A DNA stretch of 15,351 nucleotides, from IMG/VR virus record IMGVR_UViG_2609459769_000006, one strand, 5' to 3'. The notes beneath the pieces were generated by a model that saw only the letters and a program-made list of their open reading frames with translations, was not told where the DNA came from and made no database searches. A program made the translations under genes and the position numbers. The stretch comes from a virus. Taxonomy: Duplodnaviria > Heunggongvirae > Uroviricota > Caudoviricetes. Positions 1,031-13,342 of the stretch are shown here, in pieces. Every line of letters begins with the position of its first letter. Position 1 is the first letter of the stretch.

Positions 1031-1630
1031 TCAGAAACGGTATCCGATACCAACAATAAATGCATCCGTTCGCCAGTCGCCACTACCGGAACCTTCATAA
1101 GCAAGGTCAATGGTCACGGATTCGGTCGGGTTAAACTGCACGCCAGCCCCCCACGCCAGAGACGTGTTGCTGTGGCGACCGTCATCACTTCCGGTCAGCA
1201 CATCGTGCGTTTTCCCCTTGTTGTCAGTTACGCGGAGATAATCCCCGGAGAAAGTCGACACACGGCTGTAAGCCACACCCGCCATCGCATACGCGCTGAA
1301 CCATTCATTCACGCGTACAGACGGCCCCGCCATCACGCTGAACCAGCGGTTACGCACGGAATCTTCATGCCAGCGGGTATCGCTGTAGCGCGTTTTTTGC
1401 TCATCCTCAGCATTGGCATAACTGAAGGACGTAATCAGCCCCAGCGCGTCCGTAAACTCATAACGGTATTTCACGTTAATCCCGTTCAGATCATCACTAC
1501 CGGGAACGTTCGTCGAGGCATGGAGATACCCCGCGCTCAGCGTGGACTGATGTTCTGCTGCACTCGCTGGCGTAGCAGCGGCGACCTGCCAGACTACTGC
1601 GGACAAAATAACAGCACATAATTTACGCAT
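1031..1630 (-). CDS. lom: Lom outer-membrane protein (Ail/Lom family beta-barrel)
   Basis: 199-aa ORF MRKLCAVILSAV...HQSTLSAGYLHASTNVPGSDDLNGINVKYRYEFTD...AYEGSGSGDWRTDAFIVGIGYRF: signal peptide plus near-identity to my recollection of lambda Lom, ending in aromatic residue typical of OM beta-barrels; GAGAGG SD upstream of ATG 1630. Confidence 0.9.
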   Translation of the reverse strand: MRKLCAVILSAVVWQVAAATPASAAEHQSTLSAGYLHASTNVPGSDDLNGINVKYRYEFTDALGLITSFSYANAEDEQKTRYSDTRWHEDSVRNRWFSVMAGPSVRVNEWFSAYAMAGVAYSRVSTFSGDYLRVTDNKGKTHDVLTGSDDGRHSNTSLAWGAGVQFNPTESVTIDLAYEGSGSGDWRTDAFIVGIGYRF

Positions 1631-1697: not shown

Positions 1698-3068
1698 TCA
1701 GCTAATCGTGATGCCTGCAGTGGCTTTCTTCATCACCACAACCAGCAAATCGCTGATACTTGCTGTGGGATACCAGTTATTTACCAGCCATGCTGACACC
1801 GAAAACTCCAGTGTCATGTGACCGTGACCGGCAGGCATATCAATAACACCACTGTAAATCAGCGTATTATCCAGCGCGGTACGGTTATAAATTTCAGCAC
1901 CGTTTTTCCGCACTATCAGACGGCATGAGGAGTAAATATCAGTATGCTCTTTCTCATGTTTAGCGCCGCTGAATGCCACCGCCGGAATAACAATCTGCCG
2001 GTCAAACGGCTGATCGTCATAAACCCTGACGGTAATGGTTCCTGATGGCCACCGCTCCGGTGCACGGGAGTCCCGGGGGAAAGCTTTGCCCACTGTTTTA
2101 ACGAGATCGCCTTCAATCTGGTTCGCGGACAATTTTCCCAGAACCCGACAGTTCTCGTTAATCGTGACGTTGTTGAGCGTCCCGGAGTTCGCATTCACGT
2201 TACCGCTGATATCGGCATTTTTCGCCGTCAGCCGCCCGTCCGGTGTCAGGGAAAATGCCGGAGGATTACCGCCGCTGGTAATGGTGGGAGCCGTCAGATA
2301 TTTCAGGAACACTTCATTCATAAATATCTGATCGCCCTGACCAACAAACATCGGCTTTGTGTTGCCATTCGCAGGATTAATCATCGCAATCCTGTCTGCC
2401 GCCAGCAGCACCTGACTCTGCATTCCTGCTGGCGTATTCTCAATACCGGCACCGATACCCGCAATATAAAGGCGTCCGTCCTGCATCTGCTGCAGTTTCA
2501 CGGCCCACATGCTGTTCAGGTTATTATTTGTATCAACCTGAACTTTCTGTATCTGCTGGATTGCCGCACTCTGATTTTCCAGTTTTTTATTGACGGTCTG
2601 CGTGATTTCATTGCTGACATTCGTAATGGACGTCCTGATTTCAGCCAGGTCCGGCGCAAGCTGACCGTTATCAATCTGCGTCCACAGCTCCTGGGCCAGA
2701 TGTGTTTTCCCGATTTCTCCTTTGAAAAAATCCAGGTAACCTTCCGCATCATCGCTCGCCCGACCGACAGCCTCCACGAATGCCGATTTGCCAACAGTAT
2801 TCACACTGCGGATATAAAAATAATAATCATGGCCCGGTTTGATATTGATACTGGCAGCTATCCAGTACAGCGCCGAGCCAAGATAGCGGGCTGCGGTTTC
2901 AACCTGCCTGATATCCGCAATCCGCTTTTCCGAGAACCAGAACTCAAACTGTATCCGTGGTGGGGTTGTCGAACTCATCCGCCACCGCAGGACCGTTATC
3001 TGACTAACCTGTATTTCAAAATCAGAGAGGACCGTCGTAAGGCTGCACGGGGAGAGTAATTCAATGAC
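1698..3068 (-). pseudogene. J: Host-specificity/central tail fiber protein J, C-terminal fragment (5'-truncated remnant, about 456 codons of open frame)
   Basis: Translation contains [24 protein letters not shown]...[50 protein letters not shown]...[45 protein letters not shown], recognised as the C-terminal region of lambda J. Frame is open upstream only to a stop at 3069-3071, so roughly 670 N-terminal codons of a full-length J are absent; first ATG is at 2978. Confidence 0.75.
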
Positions 3069-3408
3069 TCAAAACTATGAACTGATTGTGAAAGGGATCC
3101 GCAATTTTGAGAATAAAGTTACGGTAACTTTAGCGTTACGGGACAAAAAACGCTTTGACGGTGAAATTTTTGACCTGGACATCTCGCTGGACCGTGTTGA
3201 AGGTGCCGCGCTGGAGTTTTATGAGGCAGCAGCCAGAAGGAGCATCAGACAGGTCTTCCTGGATGTTGCTGCCGGGTTATGTGAAGGGGATGAGCAGTCG
3301 CCGGAAAAGCGCCCCGTAATTTTAGAGGCGCAGGATGTGTTGATAACCTACAGAGGAAAACTACCGGGAATAATTACGGGTTCTCTGAAGAGTCCGCCGA
3401 AATGGTAA
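3064..3408 (+). CDS. Hypothetical protein (114 aa), sits at the J truncation junction
   Basis: ORF with GGGGAGAG SD-like sequence 7 nt upstream of ATG 3064; soluble-looking protein; no family recognised. Confidence 0.45.
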
Positions 3409-3646
3409 TTTTACCAGCATATTTTTCATCCAGTAATACAGCAAGCCGCCTGAAAGAGTCTTGTTGTTCCTGAGACCATTTGGGATTGCATGATTCAAAC
3501 TGGATTGATGCCAGCGTTGATTGCATCTGTTCCCTTGGAATTGAGAATGCCAGATATGAGAAGGCGACGGTAAGGGTATTCACGTCTTCCCGAAGCCTGG
3601 AAATGCTGTCGAGCAACTCCTGTAGAGAAATGGTGTTATTGTCCAT
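3374..3646 (-). CDS. Hypothetical protein (90 aa)
   Basis: ORF with GAGGAT SD 6 nt upstream of ATG 3646; 3' end overlaps the 3' end of the convergent 114-aa ORF by 35 nt; no family recognised. Confidence 0.4.
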   Translation of the reverse strand: MDNNTISLQELLDSISRLREDVNTLTVAFSYLAFSIPREQMQSTLASIQFESCNPKWSQEQQDSFRRLAVLLDEKYAGKITISADSSENP

Positions 3647-3751
3647 AAATAATCCTCATGATTGTATTGACCTGTTAGCAGCCTGAGGCAACAGGCTGGA
3701 ACTGATAAACATATCCAGGGCTCAGAAACCGATAAATCCTGATAAATATCC

Positions 3752-4315
3752 ATGAACGCAAAAATCAGATACGGCCTGTCGGCTGCCGTTCTGGCGCTGA
3801 TTGCCGCTGGTGCGCCTGCGCCTGACATTCTCGACCAGTTTCTGGATGAAAAGGAAGGTAACCACACCACGGCATACCGTGATGGCGCGGGTATCTGGAC
3901 CATCTGCCGCGGTGCCATCCTGGTGGATGGCAAACCTGTCGTTCCGGGCATGAAGTTGTCGAAGGAAAAATGCGACCGGGTTAACGCCATTGAGCGTGAT
4001 AAGGCGCTGGCATGGGTGGAGAAAAACATCAGAGTGCCATTGAGTGAACCCCAGAAACGGGTGATCACCGGGATTGCGTCAACGCCTTCTCCGGATCGGG
4101 ATGGTGACATCCTGGAGCCGGAGGGCGCGGAGTTTGGCAGTGCGATCCCGTTTCTCTGGCAGCATGACCATTCCCGCCCGGTGGGGCAGTGTACGGTACG
4201 CCGGGTCAGCGAAGGGCTGGAAATCACGGCAACACTGGTGAAGCCCGTACCGGATATGCCGTCGCAACTGGCTGCCCGGCTGCCGGGCCAGCCACTCCAT
4301 TCAGTTTCGGAGTAA
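3752..4315 (+). pseudogene. Chimeric remnant: SAR-endolysin (GH24 phage lysozyme) N-terminus fused in frame to a prohead protease (HK97-type) N-terminal fragment
   Basis: Residues 1-105 (nt 3752-4066): signal-anchor-like LSAAVLALIAAGA followed by lysozyme catalytic E-8aa-D-5aa-T pattern (EGNHTTAYRDGAGIWT). Residues from about 106 (nt 4067-4315): IASTPSPDRDGDILEPEGAEF...PFLWQHDHSRPVGQ, resembling the N-terminus of caudoviral prohead proteases. Too short for either full enzyme; no holin upstream; no clear SD. Confidence 0.55.
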
Positions 4316-5309
4316 CCGTGGCACTGCCGGCGGTGAACACCAGCTCCAGCGTCTGCCAGTCGTTACTGTAATTCCCGAACTCGCCCAACTTTGTGTTTCC
4401 TGCTTTCCTGTGATGCATCAGATTCAGTTTGCCGTCTGTGGTCTGGGTGAAGAACGACATCAGGAACGGGTTACCAGTCCCGGTCATCGTCACGACGTCA
4501 GGTAACGCTACATCGGTATACAGATAAATTCCCAGACCGAACTGGTTGTTGGTCAGTGCGCCTGACAGTCGAAACTTACAGCTCAGTCTGCCACCCCGTG
4601 TCAGCAGGGAGACTGCGTCATCCACCGGATGCATCAGGGACCAGGTTTTATTGCTCTGCTTGGTAACCTTAAACACACCATCTTCCAGCGCAACACTGCC
4701 GCCGGTGATGGTCCAGCCCTGCGCAGCAGCCTCTCCGGCTGTCGGCAGCAGGGAGACTGTACGAACGGATGTGTCACCATCAGACGGCCCCGATGGCGTG
4801 TCGCCGCCGGGCGAGGGTTTAATCTCCGGTGCGGTACCGCTGATGAAGGCGCTGGTTCGACCAACTGCGTTCAGAATAGCGGTTGCCAGGCGATCCGAAA
4901 TAATGCCCCTGCGCGCCCATGAACTGAAATGTGTCGGACGATTTGACGATACCCAATTACCATTACTACGGGATTGCGCGCCGTAATAACCTGCATCAGC
5001 AATATCCGGGTCTTCTGCCGGTAAGTTGGTGGGCGTGTTGTTGCCGTTACCGTCGGTCATGAACGGCACAAAGAAAACGTTGTCGCTCTCCCTGTTTTTG
5101 TACGCGCCGTAGACGGAGTCATACTGTGTGCCGTATGTGTTTTTCCAGTAATACGTCGTGTCGCCACAAATCCACGGTACAACTGCAGCACTGCCGCCAT
5201 GGCACTGCGCCGCCAGCCCGGCAAGGTCAGCACGGAACTGCTGTACCATTGCAAGAAATGCTGCTGGCTGCTGGGCGTACCAGAACAGATCGAAGTAATA
5301 CCCGCACAT
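4224..5309 (-). CDS. Hypothetical two-domain protein (361 aa): Cys/aromatic-rich N-domain, Pro/Ser/Gly linker, C-terminal Gly/Thr-rich probable beta-rich domain
   Basis: Longest and most protein-like ORF in this GC-rich stretch; start ATG overlaps the stop of the upstream 92-aa ORF in a TAATG arrangement (5305-5309), suggesting translational coupling; linker PEIKPSPGGDTPSGPSDGDTS. No family recognised. Confidence 0.6.
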   Translation of the reverse strand: MCGYYFDLFWYAQQPAAFLAMVQQFRADLAGLAAQCHGGSAAVVPWICGDTTYYWKNTYGTQYDSVYGAYKNRESDNVFFVPFMTDGNGNNTPTNLPAEDPDIADAGYYGAQSRSNGNWVSSNRPTHFSSWARRGIISDRLATAILNAVGRTSAFISGTAPEIKPSPGGDTPSGPSDGDTSVRTVSLLPTAGEAAAQGWTITGGSVALEDGVFKVTKQSNKTWSLMHPVDDAVSLLTRGGRLSCKFRLSGALTNNQFGLGIYLYTDVALPDVVTMTGTGNPFLMSFFTQTTDGKLNLMHHRKAGNTKLGEFGNYSNDWQTLELVFTAGSATVTPKLNGVAGPAAGQPVATAYPVRASPVLP

Positions 5310-5995: not shown

Positions 5996-8260
5996 TTATA
6001 CGGAAACTGGCACACGAGCAGGCAATGGATAGTGAGCCCAGTTATTAGCATTTAAAGCTCTTACGCCATCAGCATAAACTTGTGTGTTTCCATCTAATGA
6101 TTTTAAAGTTACTACAATAGTTACAGGTAAAGGCTCCATTAAGGCCGGTTCATTCGCTCTCAACGTTGTTTTAGCTTGAAGAGCCCAGTTACCCGAAGTA
6201 ATTCCTTTATTAAATGCCTTGCGATGAATTTTTACTGGTGACCACTTTCCACCATGCTCAATTTGAGCTCTCTCATATCCAGATTGACCGTTTTCTCCTT
6301 CCATAGGTACTTTTCCTTTTATAGTATTATTCTCAATTAAGCCAAAACTTAGCTCTACGTTCGCGCGAACATATTCACTGCCGGCATTAGGGTTCAGTGG
6401 TGGTGCATATGCAGCAGTAATTACAATCTCACCTTTAAATTTTCCATTTTGAATAAGTGCCGATGGTATGGGATAGTTTTCCTTTCTCCACCTCACCCCA
6501 GGAACCAAGAATGTTTGGAAAATCAGAGTAAACCTATCATCACTATCATATAAGGTCTCAATAACCTCATTAGGAATTCCCGCTCCCAAATAGCGTCTTT
6601 CACTTGGCGAGTAATCAGGAGAAGATAATTGAGCGGAATGAATTAATAATGCTTTAATCAATGATGGTGAAACATTAAAGTCTGAATTAGTGGCTATTCT
6701 CTGCCATGTATGCGCAGCTAAACTTGCCACAATTGGAGCAGCAAAACTAGTACCAAAATTAGAGCAAAGCCTATTATCTGGCCCTACGACCTTTAAACTG
6801 CTTGCTCCTACATTCCAAGGTCTATGAACCCCACCGCCAGCATGGATTATATCTGGCTTTGGAGTAAATACAGGCCCAGGGCCACGACGAGTATATGGTG
6901 TCGGTGTTCCAATTTCACTTAAAGCATCATTAGCTTCCATATGAGAAACTGAACCAACTGTTAGTGCTCGGACTGACTCTCCAGGAGAGGAAATTAAATC
7001 AGCACCTCCAAGCGGATCAGGATTTGGCCATGTACGTATAGGTTCATCTACATAATTACCTGCAGCAACTACAAACAAAATACCAAATTTATCGCTGAGC
7101 CGATCTAACTCCATCGCAAAATCACTAAACATCTGCTCATTACATGGTCCGCCTCCCAAAGATAAATTCCAGACTTTTATATCTGGTCTTTTATTTACAG
7201 CATCTGCTAGCCTCAGAATTAAATCTGATATATAAGATCCATTTTCATCTAAAGCACAAACATCATGGATTTTAGATTTTGTATCAGGAATCCATGGATG
7301 ATTGTCATTTAAAAAATGAGCGCCTGATATCAATGAAGACACCATAGTCCCATGTTCATAACTCGTATCAGGAGGAATTACGTATGTTTCCCTACTCACT
7401 ACCCAAGGAGTAATTGTTGCCGCGATGGGGCTTACCCCAGTGTCAAATACAGCAACAATGGGTAATTCTTCTGATGGTACGGGAAAGCTATTTGTTTCAA
7501 TGCCAACAGAATCACTTACACTAACCGGGAATGCTGAATATTTTGGTTCTGGAATTAACGTTCTTATACCCGGGTAATCAATGAGAATGTCTAATATATA
7601 TCTATCATTTGGGGATAAATCCATTATCCTTAATAAGGGAAGACCACATTTTGGTCTAATCTCATCATATTTAACTCCGTGTTGTTCTAATATAGAAATA
7701 ACGTTTTCATAGTTGTTGTAAGTTGCATCTTCACCTGTGTACTCAAATAGTCGTACAAGGATGTTTGATGATTCAAACAAACCATCAGTGCCTCCTGGAA
7801 CCTTCCTATTCTCATCCCAAGGTTCAATGCGCTCAATCGCGCTTAGATTAGCCAAAATCGCTTTAATATTCCGATGTAAAATGACTGACTCTAATACGTC
7901 AAAACAGCCGGCATGAGCAGCAACCAACATTTCATCTATTTTGGCATGACCGGCATTTTGCAATCCAGCCTCTTGAGCAATTTTGTTCGGCCTATGCGTT
8001 TTGGCTATTCCCTGGTCTCTTAATTTGAAAACCAAAGTACCCAAGCTTCCAGGGTACTCTGAAAGTTTGGATTCTAAATAATGTTTACTGGTTGTTAAAT
8101 TTCTTACTAGCCCTTGTCTATATTCGGCTGTTACATCAACCAATACCTTTGCCCCACCGCCAGCGTTTACTATTGCACCCAAGTCACTACTGGAAAAAGG
8201 GATTCTTAACATTGGGTTTGTAACTTTTGCGTTACTAAACTGTGTACCCCTTCTGCTCAT
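5996..8260 (-). CDS. Large subtilisin-like serine protease (peptidase S8 fold) with uncharacterised N- and C-terminal extensions, 754 aa
   Basis: Canonical subtilase order and motifs: Asp in VAVFDTGV (D273), His in YEHGTMVSS (H303), oxyanion Asn in VVAAGN (N401), Ser in GTSFAAP (S505). About 255 residues before and about 195 after the catalytic domain with no recognised motifs. ATG 8260 preceded by AGGAG; start overlaps ATPase stop by 26 nt. AT-rich codon usage. Confidence 0.85.
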   Translation of the reverse strand: MSRRGTQFSNAKVTNPMLRIPFSSSDLGAIVNAGGGAKVLVDVTAEYRQGLVRNLTTSKHYLESKLSEYPGSLGTLVFKLRDQGIAKTHRPNKIAQEAGLQNAGHAKIDEMLVAAHAGCFDVLESVILHRNIKAILANLSAIERIEPWDENRKVPGGTDGLFESSNILVRLFEYTGEDATYNNYENVISILEQHGVKYDEIRPKCGLPLLRIMDLSPNDRYILDILIDYPGIRTLIPEPKYSAFPVSVSDSVGIETNSFPVPSEELPIVAVFDTGVSPIAATITPWVVSRETYVIPPDTSYEHGTMVSSLISGAHFLNDNHPWIPDTKSKIHDVCALDENGSYISDLILRLADAVNKRPDIKVWNLSLGGGPCNEQMFSDFAMELDRLSDKFGILFVVAAGNYVDEPIRTWPNPDPLGGADLISSPGESVRALTVGSVSHMEANDALSEIGTPTPYTRRGPGPVFTPKPDIIHAGGGVHRPWNVGASSLKVVGPDNRLCSNFGTSFAAPIVASLAAHTWQRIATNSDFNVSPSLIKALLIHSAQLSSPDYSPSERRYLGAGIPNEVIETLYDSDDRFTLIFQTFLVPGVRWRKENYPIPSALIQNGKFKGEIVITAAYAPPLNPNAGSEYVRANVELSFGLIENNTIKGKVPMEGENGQSGYERAQIEHGGKWSPVKIHRKAFNKGITSGNWALQAKTTLRANEPALMEPLPVTIVVTLKSLDGNTQVYADGVRALNANNWAHYPLPARVPVSV

Positions 8261-9389
8261 ATGCTCCTGACTCCTTCAGAATGTTTGAAATTACTCTTGA
8301 TGTAAGTTTGTACAAATTAGCAAGAACTCTGATAGAAAATAATTTTTTATCTTTAGAACGTAACCAACGAATTTCATCTTCGTAAGTGCTTAAATTTACA
8401 CCTTCCATAAGCGATTGCGCAAGATACAAACGCCTATACAATTTATGGTGATTTATCACACTTGCACCTTCAATAACTGCATCCCTACGTGCATCCAAGC
8501 TCACCTGTTCAATTATTGCTCCGGATAATCCCTCCGATTTTCTTGATAAATCACTTAAATCTAGATCGCTACATATCATATTCTTTAAACGATTTTTCCA
8601 AATTAACTCTCTCTGATGTATGTCAGGCAGAGGCATTGGAATTCTGAAGCTAAATCGCCTCCAGATTGCAGGATCCAGAAGTTGCTCATGGTTAGTTGAG
8701 GCAATAATTACCGTATCCTCTGATGCCGCATCCATATTCTGCAATAGTGAAATGACAACTCGCTGAAGCTCACCTATATCTCTCTCATTACCTCTTGCTC
8801 CAGCTAAAGCATCAAATTCGTCTAAAAAAAGCACTGATGGCCTCTGCATTACATAATCGAAAACCTGTCTAAGATTTTTGCTGGTTTGTCCCAATAAACT
8901 ACTAATCAAAGTATCGCAACGCACTGTAAGAAGTGGAAAATCTAAGCGGGTAGCGATGTACTTAGATAACATAGTCTTACCTGTTCCTGGCTTTCCATAC
9001 ACGAGCATACGACTCGGCAATGCTGCATCAGCTTTAACAAACTCATCATAACGTTGAACATTAGTGATAAACTCTTCAACACGGGTACTGATTGCTGCAG
9101 GCAGAAAAATCTCTGAACTGTCTAATTTAGGATAACTGACATCAACAGTGTTGAGTCGACTATCAATATCTACCGGTAATGAGCCCAGAGATATCCCACC
9201 TCCAGCCCTTTGAGCTCCTGCCAACGCCTGGGGAGCTCTAAGCAACCTTTCTCTTATCATTCTGGCTTGCTTGACCTCCCCTTTTTGTTCGAGCTTATCT
9301 GCCAGCAACCCAGCATAATTACTAGCCATCGAAGCATTTGCCTTTGTTGCACCTTCAATGATTTTTAACACTTCTGATAAATAATCCAT
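8235..9389 (-). CDS. AAA+ ATPase (classic AAA clade), 384 aa
   Basis: Walker A GKPGTGKT (res 132-139), Walker B VLFLDEFD (186-193), sensor-1 STN (231-233), second region of homology with arginine pair PAIWRRFSF (240-248). GGGAG SD 7 nt upstream of ATG 9389. 3' end overlaps protease start (operon). Confidence 0.85.
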   Translation of the reverse strand: MDYLSEVLKIIEGATKANASMASNYAGLLADKLEQKGEVKQARMIRERLLRAPQALAGAQRAGGGISLGSLPVDIDSRLNTVDVSYPKLDSSEIFLPAAISTRVEEFITNVQRYDEFVKADAALPSRMLVYGKPGTGKTMLSKYIATRLDFPLLTVRCDTLISSLLGQTSKNLRQVFDYVMQRPSVLFLDEFDALAGARGNERDIGELQRVVISLLQNMDAASEDTVIIASTNHEQLLDPAIWRRFSFRIPMPLPDIHQRELIWKNRLKNMICSDLDLSDLSRKSEGLSGAIIEQVSLDARRDAVIEGASVINHHKLYRRLYLAQSLMEGVNLSTYEDEIRWLRSKDKKLFSIRVLANLYKLTSRVISNILKESGAYEQKGYTV

Positions 9390-11566: not shown

Positions 11567-12529
11567 TCACCCCCTGAATCCCGGCGGTATTTCAGTGTCC
11601 GGTTCAGAAATGTGATTCACGCAACGCTGCGCAGGCAAACGCCCCAGGCGGATAACCAGTTCATCCCATTTTTCCCGGAGTTTTGCCGGACTCATGATGT
11701 TTTTTACCCAGAACGAATCCCGCTGGAGACGCCCAAACATTTCACAAATTTGTCTGTGAGTTCTGCCATCCAGCATCCGCATTGTGCGAACGTCATTGGC
11801 CCATGCTGTCCAGTTGGGTTCTTTCGGTCTAGTGATCTCGCCATCATAGCTGGCCGCCTGCTCGTAAAGACTCACGATTCGTCCCCAGATCCACTGTGCG
11901 CACACCAAATCTTCCTGACTTCCCCACTGGCGTTTTTTCGCACTGAACACAACCGCGTCAGGGTGTCGGGTTAAAAAATCCTGTTCAGCCGTCTGCGGGT
12001 CCGGTTGCGAAGCGTCCGGACAAGAAGATCTTTTATCTGACGGATCAGGTTTTAATACTGACGGATCGGGGTCAATCATCGGCCCCCTAATCGGCAGTTT
12101 TTTATCAACAGTTGATCCATCAAAATTTGACGGGTCAACCGTTGAGGGGTCAATATTTGACGGGTCAACTGTTAACGGGTCATTTTTTGCCGGGCTAATT
12201 TTTCTTTTCGGTTTATATGACTCACGCGCCGCCGCCGCAGCTGCTTCGAGTTTTTCCACATTAAGCCGATAGATATTGCTTACATTACGCCCACCGACCT
12301 TACGCTCTTCCTTCGTCAGCCAGCCCTCTTTCGCCAGTTCTGCAATAGCCGATTTCACTGTGGATTCACTTCTTGCACCGATCTGACGCCGGATAGTTTC
12401 AATGGCAGGCCATGACACGCCCTCGTCATTGCTGTAGTCTGCAAGACGGGCCATAACCGCCACCCTGGATAAGATCATGCCGGTGAAGGCGCACCCTTCC
12501 CAGACAAGACCATGAAGCTTGCTGCTCAT
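11567..12529 (-). CDS. Phage replication initiator protein (O-like / YdaU-like): N-terminal wHTH, repeat-encoded linker, C-terminal domain
   Basis: ORF track start at 12544 is GTG; an ATG at 12529 preceded by a G-run is used here. N-terminal HTH-like region (VSWPAIETIRRQIGARSESTVKSAIAELAKEGWL), linker with repeated DPSxxDPSTVDPSN motifs encoded by DNA direct repeats, stop 7 nt before DnaC-like start. Confidence 0.7.
   Translation of the reverse strand: MSSKLHGLVWEGCAFTGMILSRVAVMARLADYSNDEGVSWPAIETIRRQIGARSESTVKSAIAELAKEGWLTKEERKVGGRNVSNIYRLNVEKLEAAAAAARESYKPKRKISPAKNDPLTVDPSNIDPSTVDPSNFDGSTVDKKLPIRGPMIDPDPSVLKPDPSDKRSSCPDASQPDPQTAEQDFLTRHPDAVVFSAKKRQWGSQEDLVCAQWIWGRIVSLYEQAASYDGEITRPKEPNWTAWANDVRTMRMLDGRTHRQICEMFGRLQRDSFWVKNIMSPAKLREKWDELVIRLGRLPAQRCVNHISEPDTEIPPGFRG
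12037..12183. repeat. Iteron-like direct repeats inside the replication initiator gene (candidate origin of replication)
   Basis: Core TGACGG(A/G)TCA at 12038-12047, 12059-12068, 12128-12137, 12158-12167, with related GGGGTCAA / ACGGGTCA units between them at about 15-bp periodicity; several units are near-palindromic (TTGACGGGTCAA). Lambdoid ori iterons classically lie within the O-gene linker region. Confidence 0.5.
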
Positions 12530-12551: not shown

Positions 12552-12977
12552 TTAGTGCATCACCACAGCATTCCCTGCCGGGCCGCCGCGATTCATCTGG
12601 TCATACAAAACAACCGCTGACGCAACAAAATCATCGACATCCTTCACCAGCCGATCCCTCCGTTCGACGATCTCACGGTAATATTCAGAACTGTGGCTGC
12701 GCATACGGGCCACCAGCAAAGGCGGCATCGCCTTTTCGATCGCCGGTAACAGAGCCTGCATTTTTTCAACAGCATCAGGGGTGTCTTTATCCAGCCAACG
12801 GAAAATTTTCTGGGTATTACGGGCCAGGGCTTCCGGATGGCTGTCGTCATACAGTTCCGGGAACGTCATTCCCAGCTCGAAATACGCTTTGGTAATTTTC
12901 GCAGCCGGCACTTTTTCGCCGTCCGGATGCGCCCAGACATTCATCGCCATGCGGATGTGTTCATGCTTGATTTTCAT
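12552..12977 (-). CDS. ydaT: YdaT-like protein (reported functional analogue of CII in Rac/CP-933P-type immunity regions), 141 aa
   Basis: Position directly after the Cro-like gene and before the replication genes; size about 140 aa; sequence MKIKHEHIRMAMNVWAHPDGEKVPAAK... matches my recollection of YdaT. AGGAG SD 8 nt upstream of ATG 12977. Not verified by alignment. Confidence 0.6.
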   Translation of the reverse strand: MKIKHEHIRMAMNVWAHPDGEKVPAAKITKAYFELGMTFPELYDDSHPEALARNTQKIFRWLDKDTPDAVEKMQALLPAIEKAMPPLLVARMRSHSSEYYREIVERRDRLVKDVDDFVASAVVLYDQMNRGGPAGNAVVMH

Positions 12978-13242
12978 GAATCAAGCTCCTAGAAAGTGGT
13001 TGTGTTAACGTTTTGGTATCTTCCAGCTCGGGCCAAATATTCATCCAATCAAAAGGCCTTAGTTGCTGACGTGTAACTTCACCATTACTGGCTCGCTCAA
13101 TAAGGACACATAACGATGCCCCTAACACTTGACCTTTACTCAATGCCTTTCTTAGATAACCGATGCTGGTACCACACTCGCATGCAAACATACGCTGTTC
13201 ATCTGACGAAAGAGAATTGAGAAATATTCTTAATTCTTCCAT
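12961..13242 (-). CDS. ydaS: Cro-like HTH regulator (YdaS-like), 93 aa
   Basis: First gene of the rightward-type operon, divergent from repressor; AAGGAG SD 6 nt upstream of ATG 13242; HTH-like segment CGTSIGYLRKALSKGQ. Symbol by synteny. Confidence 0.6.
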   Translation of the reverse strand: MEELRIFLNSLSSDEQRMFACECGTSIGYLRKALSKGQVLGASLCVLIERASNGEVTRQQLRPFDWMNIWPELEDTKTLTQPLSRSLIHENQA

Positions 13243-13342
13243 AGCTACTCCTTAGTAAACACAGCAAAGAATACCCACAGGTAAACAAAAGTCAATACCC
13301 ACAGGTTGTTTACCTTGCGGTAATCGCATCTATTATTTACCT
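13243..13342. promoter_or_regulatory. Divergent promoter/operator region (OR-like) between Cro-like gene and repressor
   Basis: Three copies of a 12-mer, consensus TACC(C/T)A(C/T)(A/G)GG(T/A)(A/T): 13272-13283 TACCCACAGGTA, 13296-13307 TACCCACAGGTT, 13339-13350 TACCTATGGACA (overlaps repressor start codon). Minus-strand promoter candidate TTGACT (plus coords 13290-13295), 16-nt spacer, TATTCT (13268-13273). Plus-strand TATTAT at 13331-13336 only 6 nt before the repressor ATG. Confidence 0.55.

Follow-up and report, generated by a model that had tools for sequence, protein, structure and literature searches.

A likely replication origin inside the initiator gene of a lambdoid prophage remnant

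We analysed a stretch of 15,351 nucleotides of virus DNA (Caudoviricetes; IMG/VR record IMGVR_UViG_2609459769_000006), hereafter the window, and in particular the short repeats inside a replication initiator gene that it encodes. The evidence makes it likely that a lambdoid prophage has its origin of replication at positions 12026-12194, within the linker-coding part of its own initiator gene. Such an origin would be built as in lambda, with another type of DNA-binding domain and with repeats arranged differently, and would be a variant of a well-known design. The case is built on the anatomy of the gene, the homology of the initiator, the conservation of the repeat array across the family, and selection on the repeats at the level of the DNA. 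Coordinates of all features are collected in Table 1.

The repeat array and the initiator that carries it

Each unit of the array consists of a 12-bp near-palindrome, TTGAnnnnTCAA, and a 3-bp spacer. The units read TCAAnnnTTGAcGGG on the plus strand and TCAAnnnTTGAsssn on the gene strand, and the sixth of them (12180-12194) is degenerate. Tandem Repeats Finder detected a period-15 array over 12105-12203 (12105-12182 and 12126-12203; 5.2 copies, score 72) and gave period-30 versions of the same array higher scores (89-101), while a repeat search returned five in-register copies with a spacing of exactly 15 bp. A 30-bp super-repeat was considered as a general feature and rejected, as the identity between units across 60 genes is 0.708 at lag 2 and 0.717 at lag 1. 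A scan of the window with TTGACGGGTCAA, allowing at most two mismatches, gave seven matches, every one within 12112-12183; shuffled sequences gave a mean of 1.3, and none of 200 shuffles reached seven. Neither Tandem Repeats Finder nor the motif scan found a second repeat array or a further copy of the iteron motif in the window. Repeated sites with internal dyad symmetry, of which a lambdoid origin should have at least four, are thus present as five copies plus the degenerate one. The repeats are confirmed to be real, above chance and at the place given here.

A preliminary description of this DNA had proposed at least four copies of TGACGG(A/G)TCA at about 15-bp spacing within the part of an O-like initiator gene that encodes a repeated DPSxxD linker, and had read them as a lambdoid-type origin. 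The place of the repeats was correct, the copy number was not: the literal motif occurs three times (12038, 12128 and 12158), with one-mismatch relatives at 12059, 12143 and 12173. Likewise, the 15-bp spacing holds for the array at 12105-12194 and fails for the copies at 12038 and 12059, which stand 21 bp apart outside the array and form a separate class. The linker was identified correctly, since the minus-strand peptides encoded by the array are DPLTV-DPSNI-DPSTV-DPSNF-DGSTV, in the open reading frame (ORF) of the initiator. The origin reading itself gains from position and from the codon-level constraint described below. The array occupies nucleotides 336-425 of the gene, where the GenBank records place four iterons of lambda (gene O nucleotides 349-433) and four gp15-binding sites of phi80 (gene 15 nucleotides 365-441).

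That the gene encodes an O-like initiator, as had been proposed, is borne out by a full-length match to PHROG 391 'replication initiation O-like' (E 3e-114). Its C-terminal part is 36% identical to residues 145-270 of lambda O (E 8e-26), and the C-domain is also homologous to phi80 gp15 (36% identity, E 1e-25). Pfam found HTH_36 alone, in the N-terminal part. An AlphaFold model, for which 52 homologues were used, has a predicted local distance difference test score (pLDDT) of 75-88 for the N-domain and 27-41 for the linker, residues 108-169. A pentapeptide-repeat (beta-helix) domain was rejected for the linker, which has no such Pfam match at E <=0.01 and is predicted to be disordered. Foldseek matched the N-domain to generic MarR/PadR-type winged helices only (E ~2e-3), with no specific solved initiator among the structure matches. 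Winged helices of the MarR/PadR type typically bind palindromes as a dimer. We propose that the array is the binding region of the N-terminal domain of the initiator.

A protein search returned 914 relatives, whose lengths step by 5 aa and whose pentapeptide repeats differ by N-domain subtype. For the comparison of loci we used 80 from the genomes of 80 species, 19 from viral contigs, and those of phages SfIV, phiP27, phi80, lambda and mEp460. A 15-bp array of 2-10 units was present at gene nucleotides ~300-400 in all of the 93 distinct homologues (93/93), those of SfIV and phiP27 included. Absence of the repeats from functional relatives, which the preliminary description had named as grounds for giving up the origin, was therefore not observed. 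The repeat units fall into three types that follow the N-domain subtype. The subtype of the window has TCAAnnnTTGAssss, the SfIV subtype has TCAAAATCTGACnCn (also written TCTGACnCnTCAAAA) and the phiP27 subtype has TCAGAATCTGAAccg (also written TCTGAAccgTCArAA). A search for an isolated phage with the N-domain subtype of the window gave none above 55% identity, and the phage DNA matches cover the C-domain only.

Variation within E. coli is also organised by the repeat unit. The initiator alleles, among them that of strain TUM10008 (268-1260 of the fetched locus), range from 305 to 330 aa and differ in frame by whole repeat units. One allele has 30 extra bp that are an exact duplication of two units. 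Others are without one to three units or without one 21-bp box, the latter being a viral-contig allele that lacks a single GATC box (see below). The first scan of viral contigs gave only near-identical E. coli alleles and is informative for copy-number variants only.

Selection on the repeat DNA

The array could be a low-complexity peptide linker between two domains, made by slippage and without any role as DNA, and the predicted disorder of the region would suit this, as would the in-frame copy-number variation among alleles, which is usual for tandem repeats. The codons of the repeats speak against it, because their synonymous positions hardly vary from genus to genus, in contrast to the scrambled coding DNA on either side. 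When units are delimited by protein sequence only, the codon for Ser1 is TCA in 85% and in no case AGY, that for Lys2 is AAA in 248/248, and that for Glu2 is GAA in 97%. By comparison, the commonest codon at conserved N-domain residues has mean frequencies across 80 genes of 0.60 (two-fold degenerate), 0.44 (four-fold) and 0.50 (six-fold). Within the unit, the information content of third-codon positions 3 and 6 (1.20-1.25 bits) is about that of the codon-first position 4 (1.13 bits), and positions 1, 2 and 5 carry more (1.83-1.92 bits). Serine codons in the linker are TCA or TCT in 84% of cases, a figure that falls to 37% elsewhere in these genes, and phenylalanine codons are TTT in 90% versus 33%.

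The orientation of the palindrome gives a second line of evidence. The 17 genes of the N-domain subtype of the window hold 90 TTGAnnnnTCAA sites, and the step from one site to the next is 15 bp in 64/73 cases; outside the linkers, 13,359 nt contain 12 sites by the same criterion. The centre of the site is GGGG in 43 of the 90 and CCCC in 34, and the same palindrome is therefore present in either orientation. A flip of the site changes the encoded peptide from Asp-Pro to Glu-Gly, and the sites encode 11 tripeptides in all, including DPP, EGS, EGL, DPS and KGS. The peptide thus shifts radically (Asp-Pro, Glu-Gly, Lys-Gly) with the palindrome kept either way round, which is not what a mere peptide linker would lead one to expect. 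A third line is a synonymous C/T choice by which, in almost all of the genes, the array has GACC and the boxes have GATC.

Phage mEp460 separates the repeats from the C-domain. Its initiator joins the C-domain seen in the window (86% nucleotide identity) to an unrelated N-domain, and at the same position it carries GGTCAAAATG in five copies ~24 bp apart together with an A/T-rich stretch and without DPSxx peptides. Because this linker is entirely different and the C-domain works with it, the C-domain does not need the peptide repeats. The repeat sequence co-varies with the N-domain, independently of the C-domain, in a qualitative comparison of few independent lineages. It has been described that iterons travel with the DNA-binding domain in lambdoid phages (PMC8022706).

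All the above tests, of codons, orientation, GAT/GAC choice and modularity, show at the sequence level that selection acts on the repeat DNA rather than on the peptide. We consider the peptide-linker explanation quite improbable.

GATC boxes and the proposed route to initiation

The second repeat class, the GATC boxes, reads CTGACGGATCrGG and comprises CTGACGGATCAGG at 12037-12049 and CTGACGGATCGGG at 12058-12070. With AGATCT at 12026-12031 there are three GATC sites in 41 bp, whereas the window has on average one GATC per 415 bp. The block is low in G+C and encodes DPDPSVLKPDPSDK, which follows the pentapeptides of the array. In the protein alignment the block (residues 153 onward) corresponds to lambda O residues 145 onward, the stretch encoded by the AT-rich tract of lambda. 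In the 93 homologues the Asp codon of the boxes is GAT in 178/212 cases, creating GATC, while Asp is GAC in 67/67 of the Asp-Pro pairs that precede residue 125, in the iteron array and the N-terminal domain. The non-GAT exceptions come mostly from an iteron-like unit that directly precedes the boxes. No DNA of the linker is more conserved than GATCC across all 93 genes, exactly two boxes at a spacing of 18-24 bp are found in 82/93, and the block adjoins the array in every homologue. Dam/SeqA control at oriC and P1 oriR provides the basis of an analogy, by which the GATC-box block might be where the origin unwinds or where it responds to Dam.

The density and the conservation of these sites also bring to mind a protein other than the initiator. 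The repeats might be sites for a host factor, for SeqA/Dam at the boxes or for a phage regulator, unrelated to initiation, and three GATC sites in 41 bp, kept family-wide by synonymous codon choice, would suit a methylation-sensitive binder. Such a binder fits the two boxes only, though, and the sequence of the 15-bp array tracks the N-domain type of the initiator. Besides, a part played by Dam/SeqA would itself fit an origin, as it does in oriC and P1 oriR. A protein unrelated to initiation appears to us a very remote prospect.

Replication from the proposed origin might proceed in four steps. Derepression would lead to transcription of an operon encoding the Cro-like and CII-like regulators, the initiator and the loader. 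Dimers of the N-terminal winged-helix domain would then bind the five or six TTGAnnnnTCAA near-palindromes spaced by 15 bp. The resulting nucleoprotein complex would destabilise the neighbouring low-G+C stretch that bears the two GATC boxes. Finally, the lambda-O-type C-domain and the DnaT-like tail would recruit the host helicase DnaB via the DnaC-like YdaV.

Binding of the initiator to the array might alternatively serve autoregulation or copy control, as a transcription roadblock or by handcuffing, with strand opening elsewhere in the prophage. It is true that the sites lie inside the operon encoding initiator and loader, that no strong AT-rich element is adjacent, and that iterons have control roles too in other replicons. 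The array, however, takes the position of the functional origins of lambda and phi80, it has no counterpart elsewhere in the 15-kb window as a second array or a further motif copy, and the conserved GATC-box block stands beside it in all homologues. We hold that a purely regulatory array is unlikely.

Several points weigh against an origin at 12026-12194. Composition and stability scans did not find a strong AT-rich unwinding element in the initiator gene. The least stable 30-mers flank the array (12098-12128, 12195-12225 and 12027-12057) with z-scores of only ~1.6-1.8, the minimum G+C is 0.27-0.33 here versus 0.23 in lambda, and the A/T-rich stretch at 12195-12225, among the three least stable 30-mers of the gene, reaches z 1.8 and the top 3.7% of the window. 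DnaA boxes are not enriched (one TTWTNCACA match, at 12252, versus 1.5 expected), and the IHF consensus has zero matches. A spacing of 15 bp is ~1.4 helical turns versus roughly two turns in lambda, which makes the geometry of the complex unclear. The homologues are phylogenetically related, so that their counts are not independent events, and the frozen codons could come partly from concerted evolution of tandem repeats. The element is moreover a deleted remnant (see below), and the searchable literature holds no described origin, binding or replication experiment for HTH_36 O-like initiators.

A wider proposal concerns the whole HTH_36 O-like branch in Enterobacterales prophages. These initiators may share an undescribed origin design, in which contiguous 15-bp-phased palindromes are combined with a GATC-box pair replacing the AT-rich tract, firing is sensitive to Dam/SeqA, and the DNA dictates the linker peptide. 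Under this design the 1.4-turn spacing would put neighbouring dimers on different sides of the helix. We put the proposal forward tentatively, as a possibility about which we are more doubtful than confident.

Prophage context and comparison with known systems

Table 1. Features of the window, with strand and the evidence or remark for each
Feature	Position	Strand	Evidence or remark
Initiator gene, 320 aa	11567..12529	-	ORF, Pfam, PHROG, AlphaFold; ATG start at 12529
Winged-helix N-domain, residues 1-105	12215-12529	-	Pfam HTH_36, AlphaFold, Foldseek
Predicted disordered linker holding all repeats, residues 108-169	12023-12208	-	AlphaFold
Lambda-O-type C-domain, helical in the model, residues 178-296	11642-11998	-	AlphaFold, homology
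DnaT-like tail, predicted disordered, residues 297-320	11570-11641	-	DnaT match, AlphaFold
Iteron array, six 15-bp units	12105..12194	-	Tandem-repeat detection and enrichment over shuffles
Five 12-bp near-palindromes TTGAnnnnTCAA	12112-12123, 12127-12138, 12142-12153, 12157-12168, 12172-12183	+	
Second repeat class, GATC boxes	12026..12071	-	Motif coordinates, codon choice in homologues
A/T-rich Lys-coding stretch, gene-upstream side of array	12195..12225	-	Nearest-neighbour stability scan
DnaC-like helicase loader, YdaV type, 248 aa	10814..11560	-	PF01695 E 1e-19; phrog_50 E 3e-83; RefSeq ydaV
CII-like YdaT protein	12552-12977	-	Pfam YdaS/YdaT matches; phrog_35/phrog_163
Cro-like regulator	12961-13242	-	Pfam YdaS/YdaT matches; phrog_35/phrog_163
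Promoter-like site TTGACT, 16-nt spacer, TATTCT	13268..13295	-	Consensus match only
Divergent repressor-like regulator, 139 aa	13343..13762	+	phrog_5736 'transcriptional regulator', E 6e-70
AAA ATPase	8235-9389	-	RefSeq: anti-phage pair IteA/IteS
S8 subtilase	5996-8260	-	RefSeq: anti-phage pair IteA/IteS
361-aa ORF with DUF6645 C-terminus	4224-5309		Related prophages: separate DUF968 and DUF6645 genes ~6 kb apart
Tail-tip protein J, 426-aa C-terminal fragment	1698-2978		Abuts early region
lom	1031-1630		Abuts early region

The window matches E. coli prophage DNA. A 1.3-kb segment around the repeats is 100% identical to a prophage beside ompW in strain 102651, and near-identical DNA that spans 80% or more of this 1.3-kb query is found in 1483/5426 complete E. 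coli genomes; no complete genome matches the whole window. The Q antiterminator, lysis and head genes are absent from the window, and ARAGORN found no tRNA in it. Because these genes are missing and the J fragment and lom abut the early region, the element is a deleted remnant, and its replication module is intact. The 361-aa ORF with the DUF6645 C-terminus, at a point where related prophages have two separate genes, points to a large deletion too. As a remnant the element agrees with the preliminary description, which had also been right to expect a DnaC-like loader, as the gene immediately downstream of the initiator gene matches PF01695 and phrog_50.

On the minus strand the order of genes is Cro-like, YdaT, initiator, YdaV, DUF1627, DUF977 and the IteA/IteS defence genes, the ATPase and subtilase genes lying past the replication genes within the early operon. 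The Cro-like and YdaT/CII-like ORFs overlap by 17 nt (12961-12977), and 22 nt separate the YdaT stop from the start codon of the initiator. The genes form a tightly packed early operon and may be translationally coupled. Transcription from the Cro-like and CII-like genes would pass through the origin region. The promoter-like site at 13268-13295, which lies in the divergent regulatory region, is a candidate equivalent of lambda pR; the number of promoter-like sites in the regulatory region is not above that in shuffles.

The last ~25 residues of the initiator, GRLPAQRCVNHISEPDTEIPPGFRG, are similar to those at the C-terminus of DnaT, a primosomal protein of E. coli (PDB 2ru8, E 0.006), which probably explains the annotation 'primosomal protein I' on phage relatives. 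The ending IPPGFRG is common to the initiator, its mEp460 counterpart and YdaU of the K-12 Rac prophage, and the SfIV ending is IPAGFRG. From the likeness to DnaT, the tail and DnaT may have a contact with DnaC or DnaB in common. The lambda-O-type C-domain occurs in three different loader arrangements, with a DnaC-like loader here, with a lambda-P-like loader in phi80, and with no adjacent loader in SfIV (2501-3933 of its locus) and mEp460 (1052-2459 of its locus).

An origin inside the O gene is a textbook principle, and the gain from the present assignment lies in the details, not in the concept. A concrete candidate origin can now be assigned to a very common prophage replication module, which has relatives in many Enterobacterales. 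It also illustrates neatly how a DNA signal that overlaps a coding sequence can dictate the encoded peptide. Defective prophages that combine this module with cargo such as IteA/IteS could, the analysis suggests, still amplify in place when derepressed, and the IteA/IteS defence cargo would be co-amplified if the origin fires. The module class includes the HTH_36 initiators of Stx phage replication units, and phage replication affects toxin output in Stx phages (PMC7466680, PMC8951638).

Among the systems close to the proposed origin is that of lambda, where four iterons and an AT-rich tract lie inside gene O (PMC7466680, PMC8022706). Both have the origin, a proposed one in the window, in the initiator gene, at the junction of the N- and C-domains and at nearly equal gene coordinates, with dyad-symmetric repeated sites, a homologous C-domain and the operon order cro, cII-like, initiator, loader. 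They differ in the N-domain, which is Phage_rep_O in lambda O and HTH_36 here, and in the repeats, as lambda has 18-19-bp iterons every 20-24 bp and the window has gapless 12-bp near-palindromes every 15 bp. The strong AT-rich tract of lambda has two GATC-containing boxes in its place here, and the lambda P loader is replaced by a DnaC-like one. Phage phi80 likewise shares the homologous C-domain and has its gp15 sites at the equivalent gene position, and AAAAGATCTTC is found just past the repeat region in both genes. Its Phage_rep_O N-domain, its P-like loader and its sequence-unrelated iterons ~21 bp apart set it apart from the window.

Nearer relatives in the N-domain are SfIV/SfII and phiP27, which belong to the same HTH_36 family (~53-55% identity) and carry a 15-bp array in the same place together with GATC boxes. 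The repeat units of SfIV and phiP27 are different from that of the window, and SfIV is without a loader gene beside the initiator. SfIV is UV-inducible and plaque-forming (PMC3851460). HTH_36 replication units have been described in Stx phages as Eru types (PMC8951638).

The Rac prophage of E. coli K-12 resembles the window in gene order (ydaS, ydaT, initiator, ydaV), in the DnaC-like YdaV and in the C-terminal IPPGFRG tail. Its initiator YdaU differs by a DUF1376 N-domain and has neither the 15-bp array nor TTGAnnnnTCAA sites, and Rac YdaU/oriJ was for these reasons rejected as a direct counterpart. In the YdaU linker (locus 3120-3977), GATCCCCCCCTAAATCCCCCCC comes after a short repeat of ATAAAG. 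Although defective, Rac has been reported to keep an active origin (PMC3945230), and it thereby offers a precedent for a remnant such as the one described here still being able to replicate.

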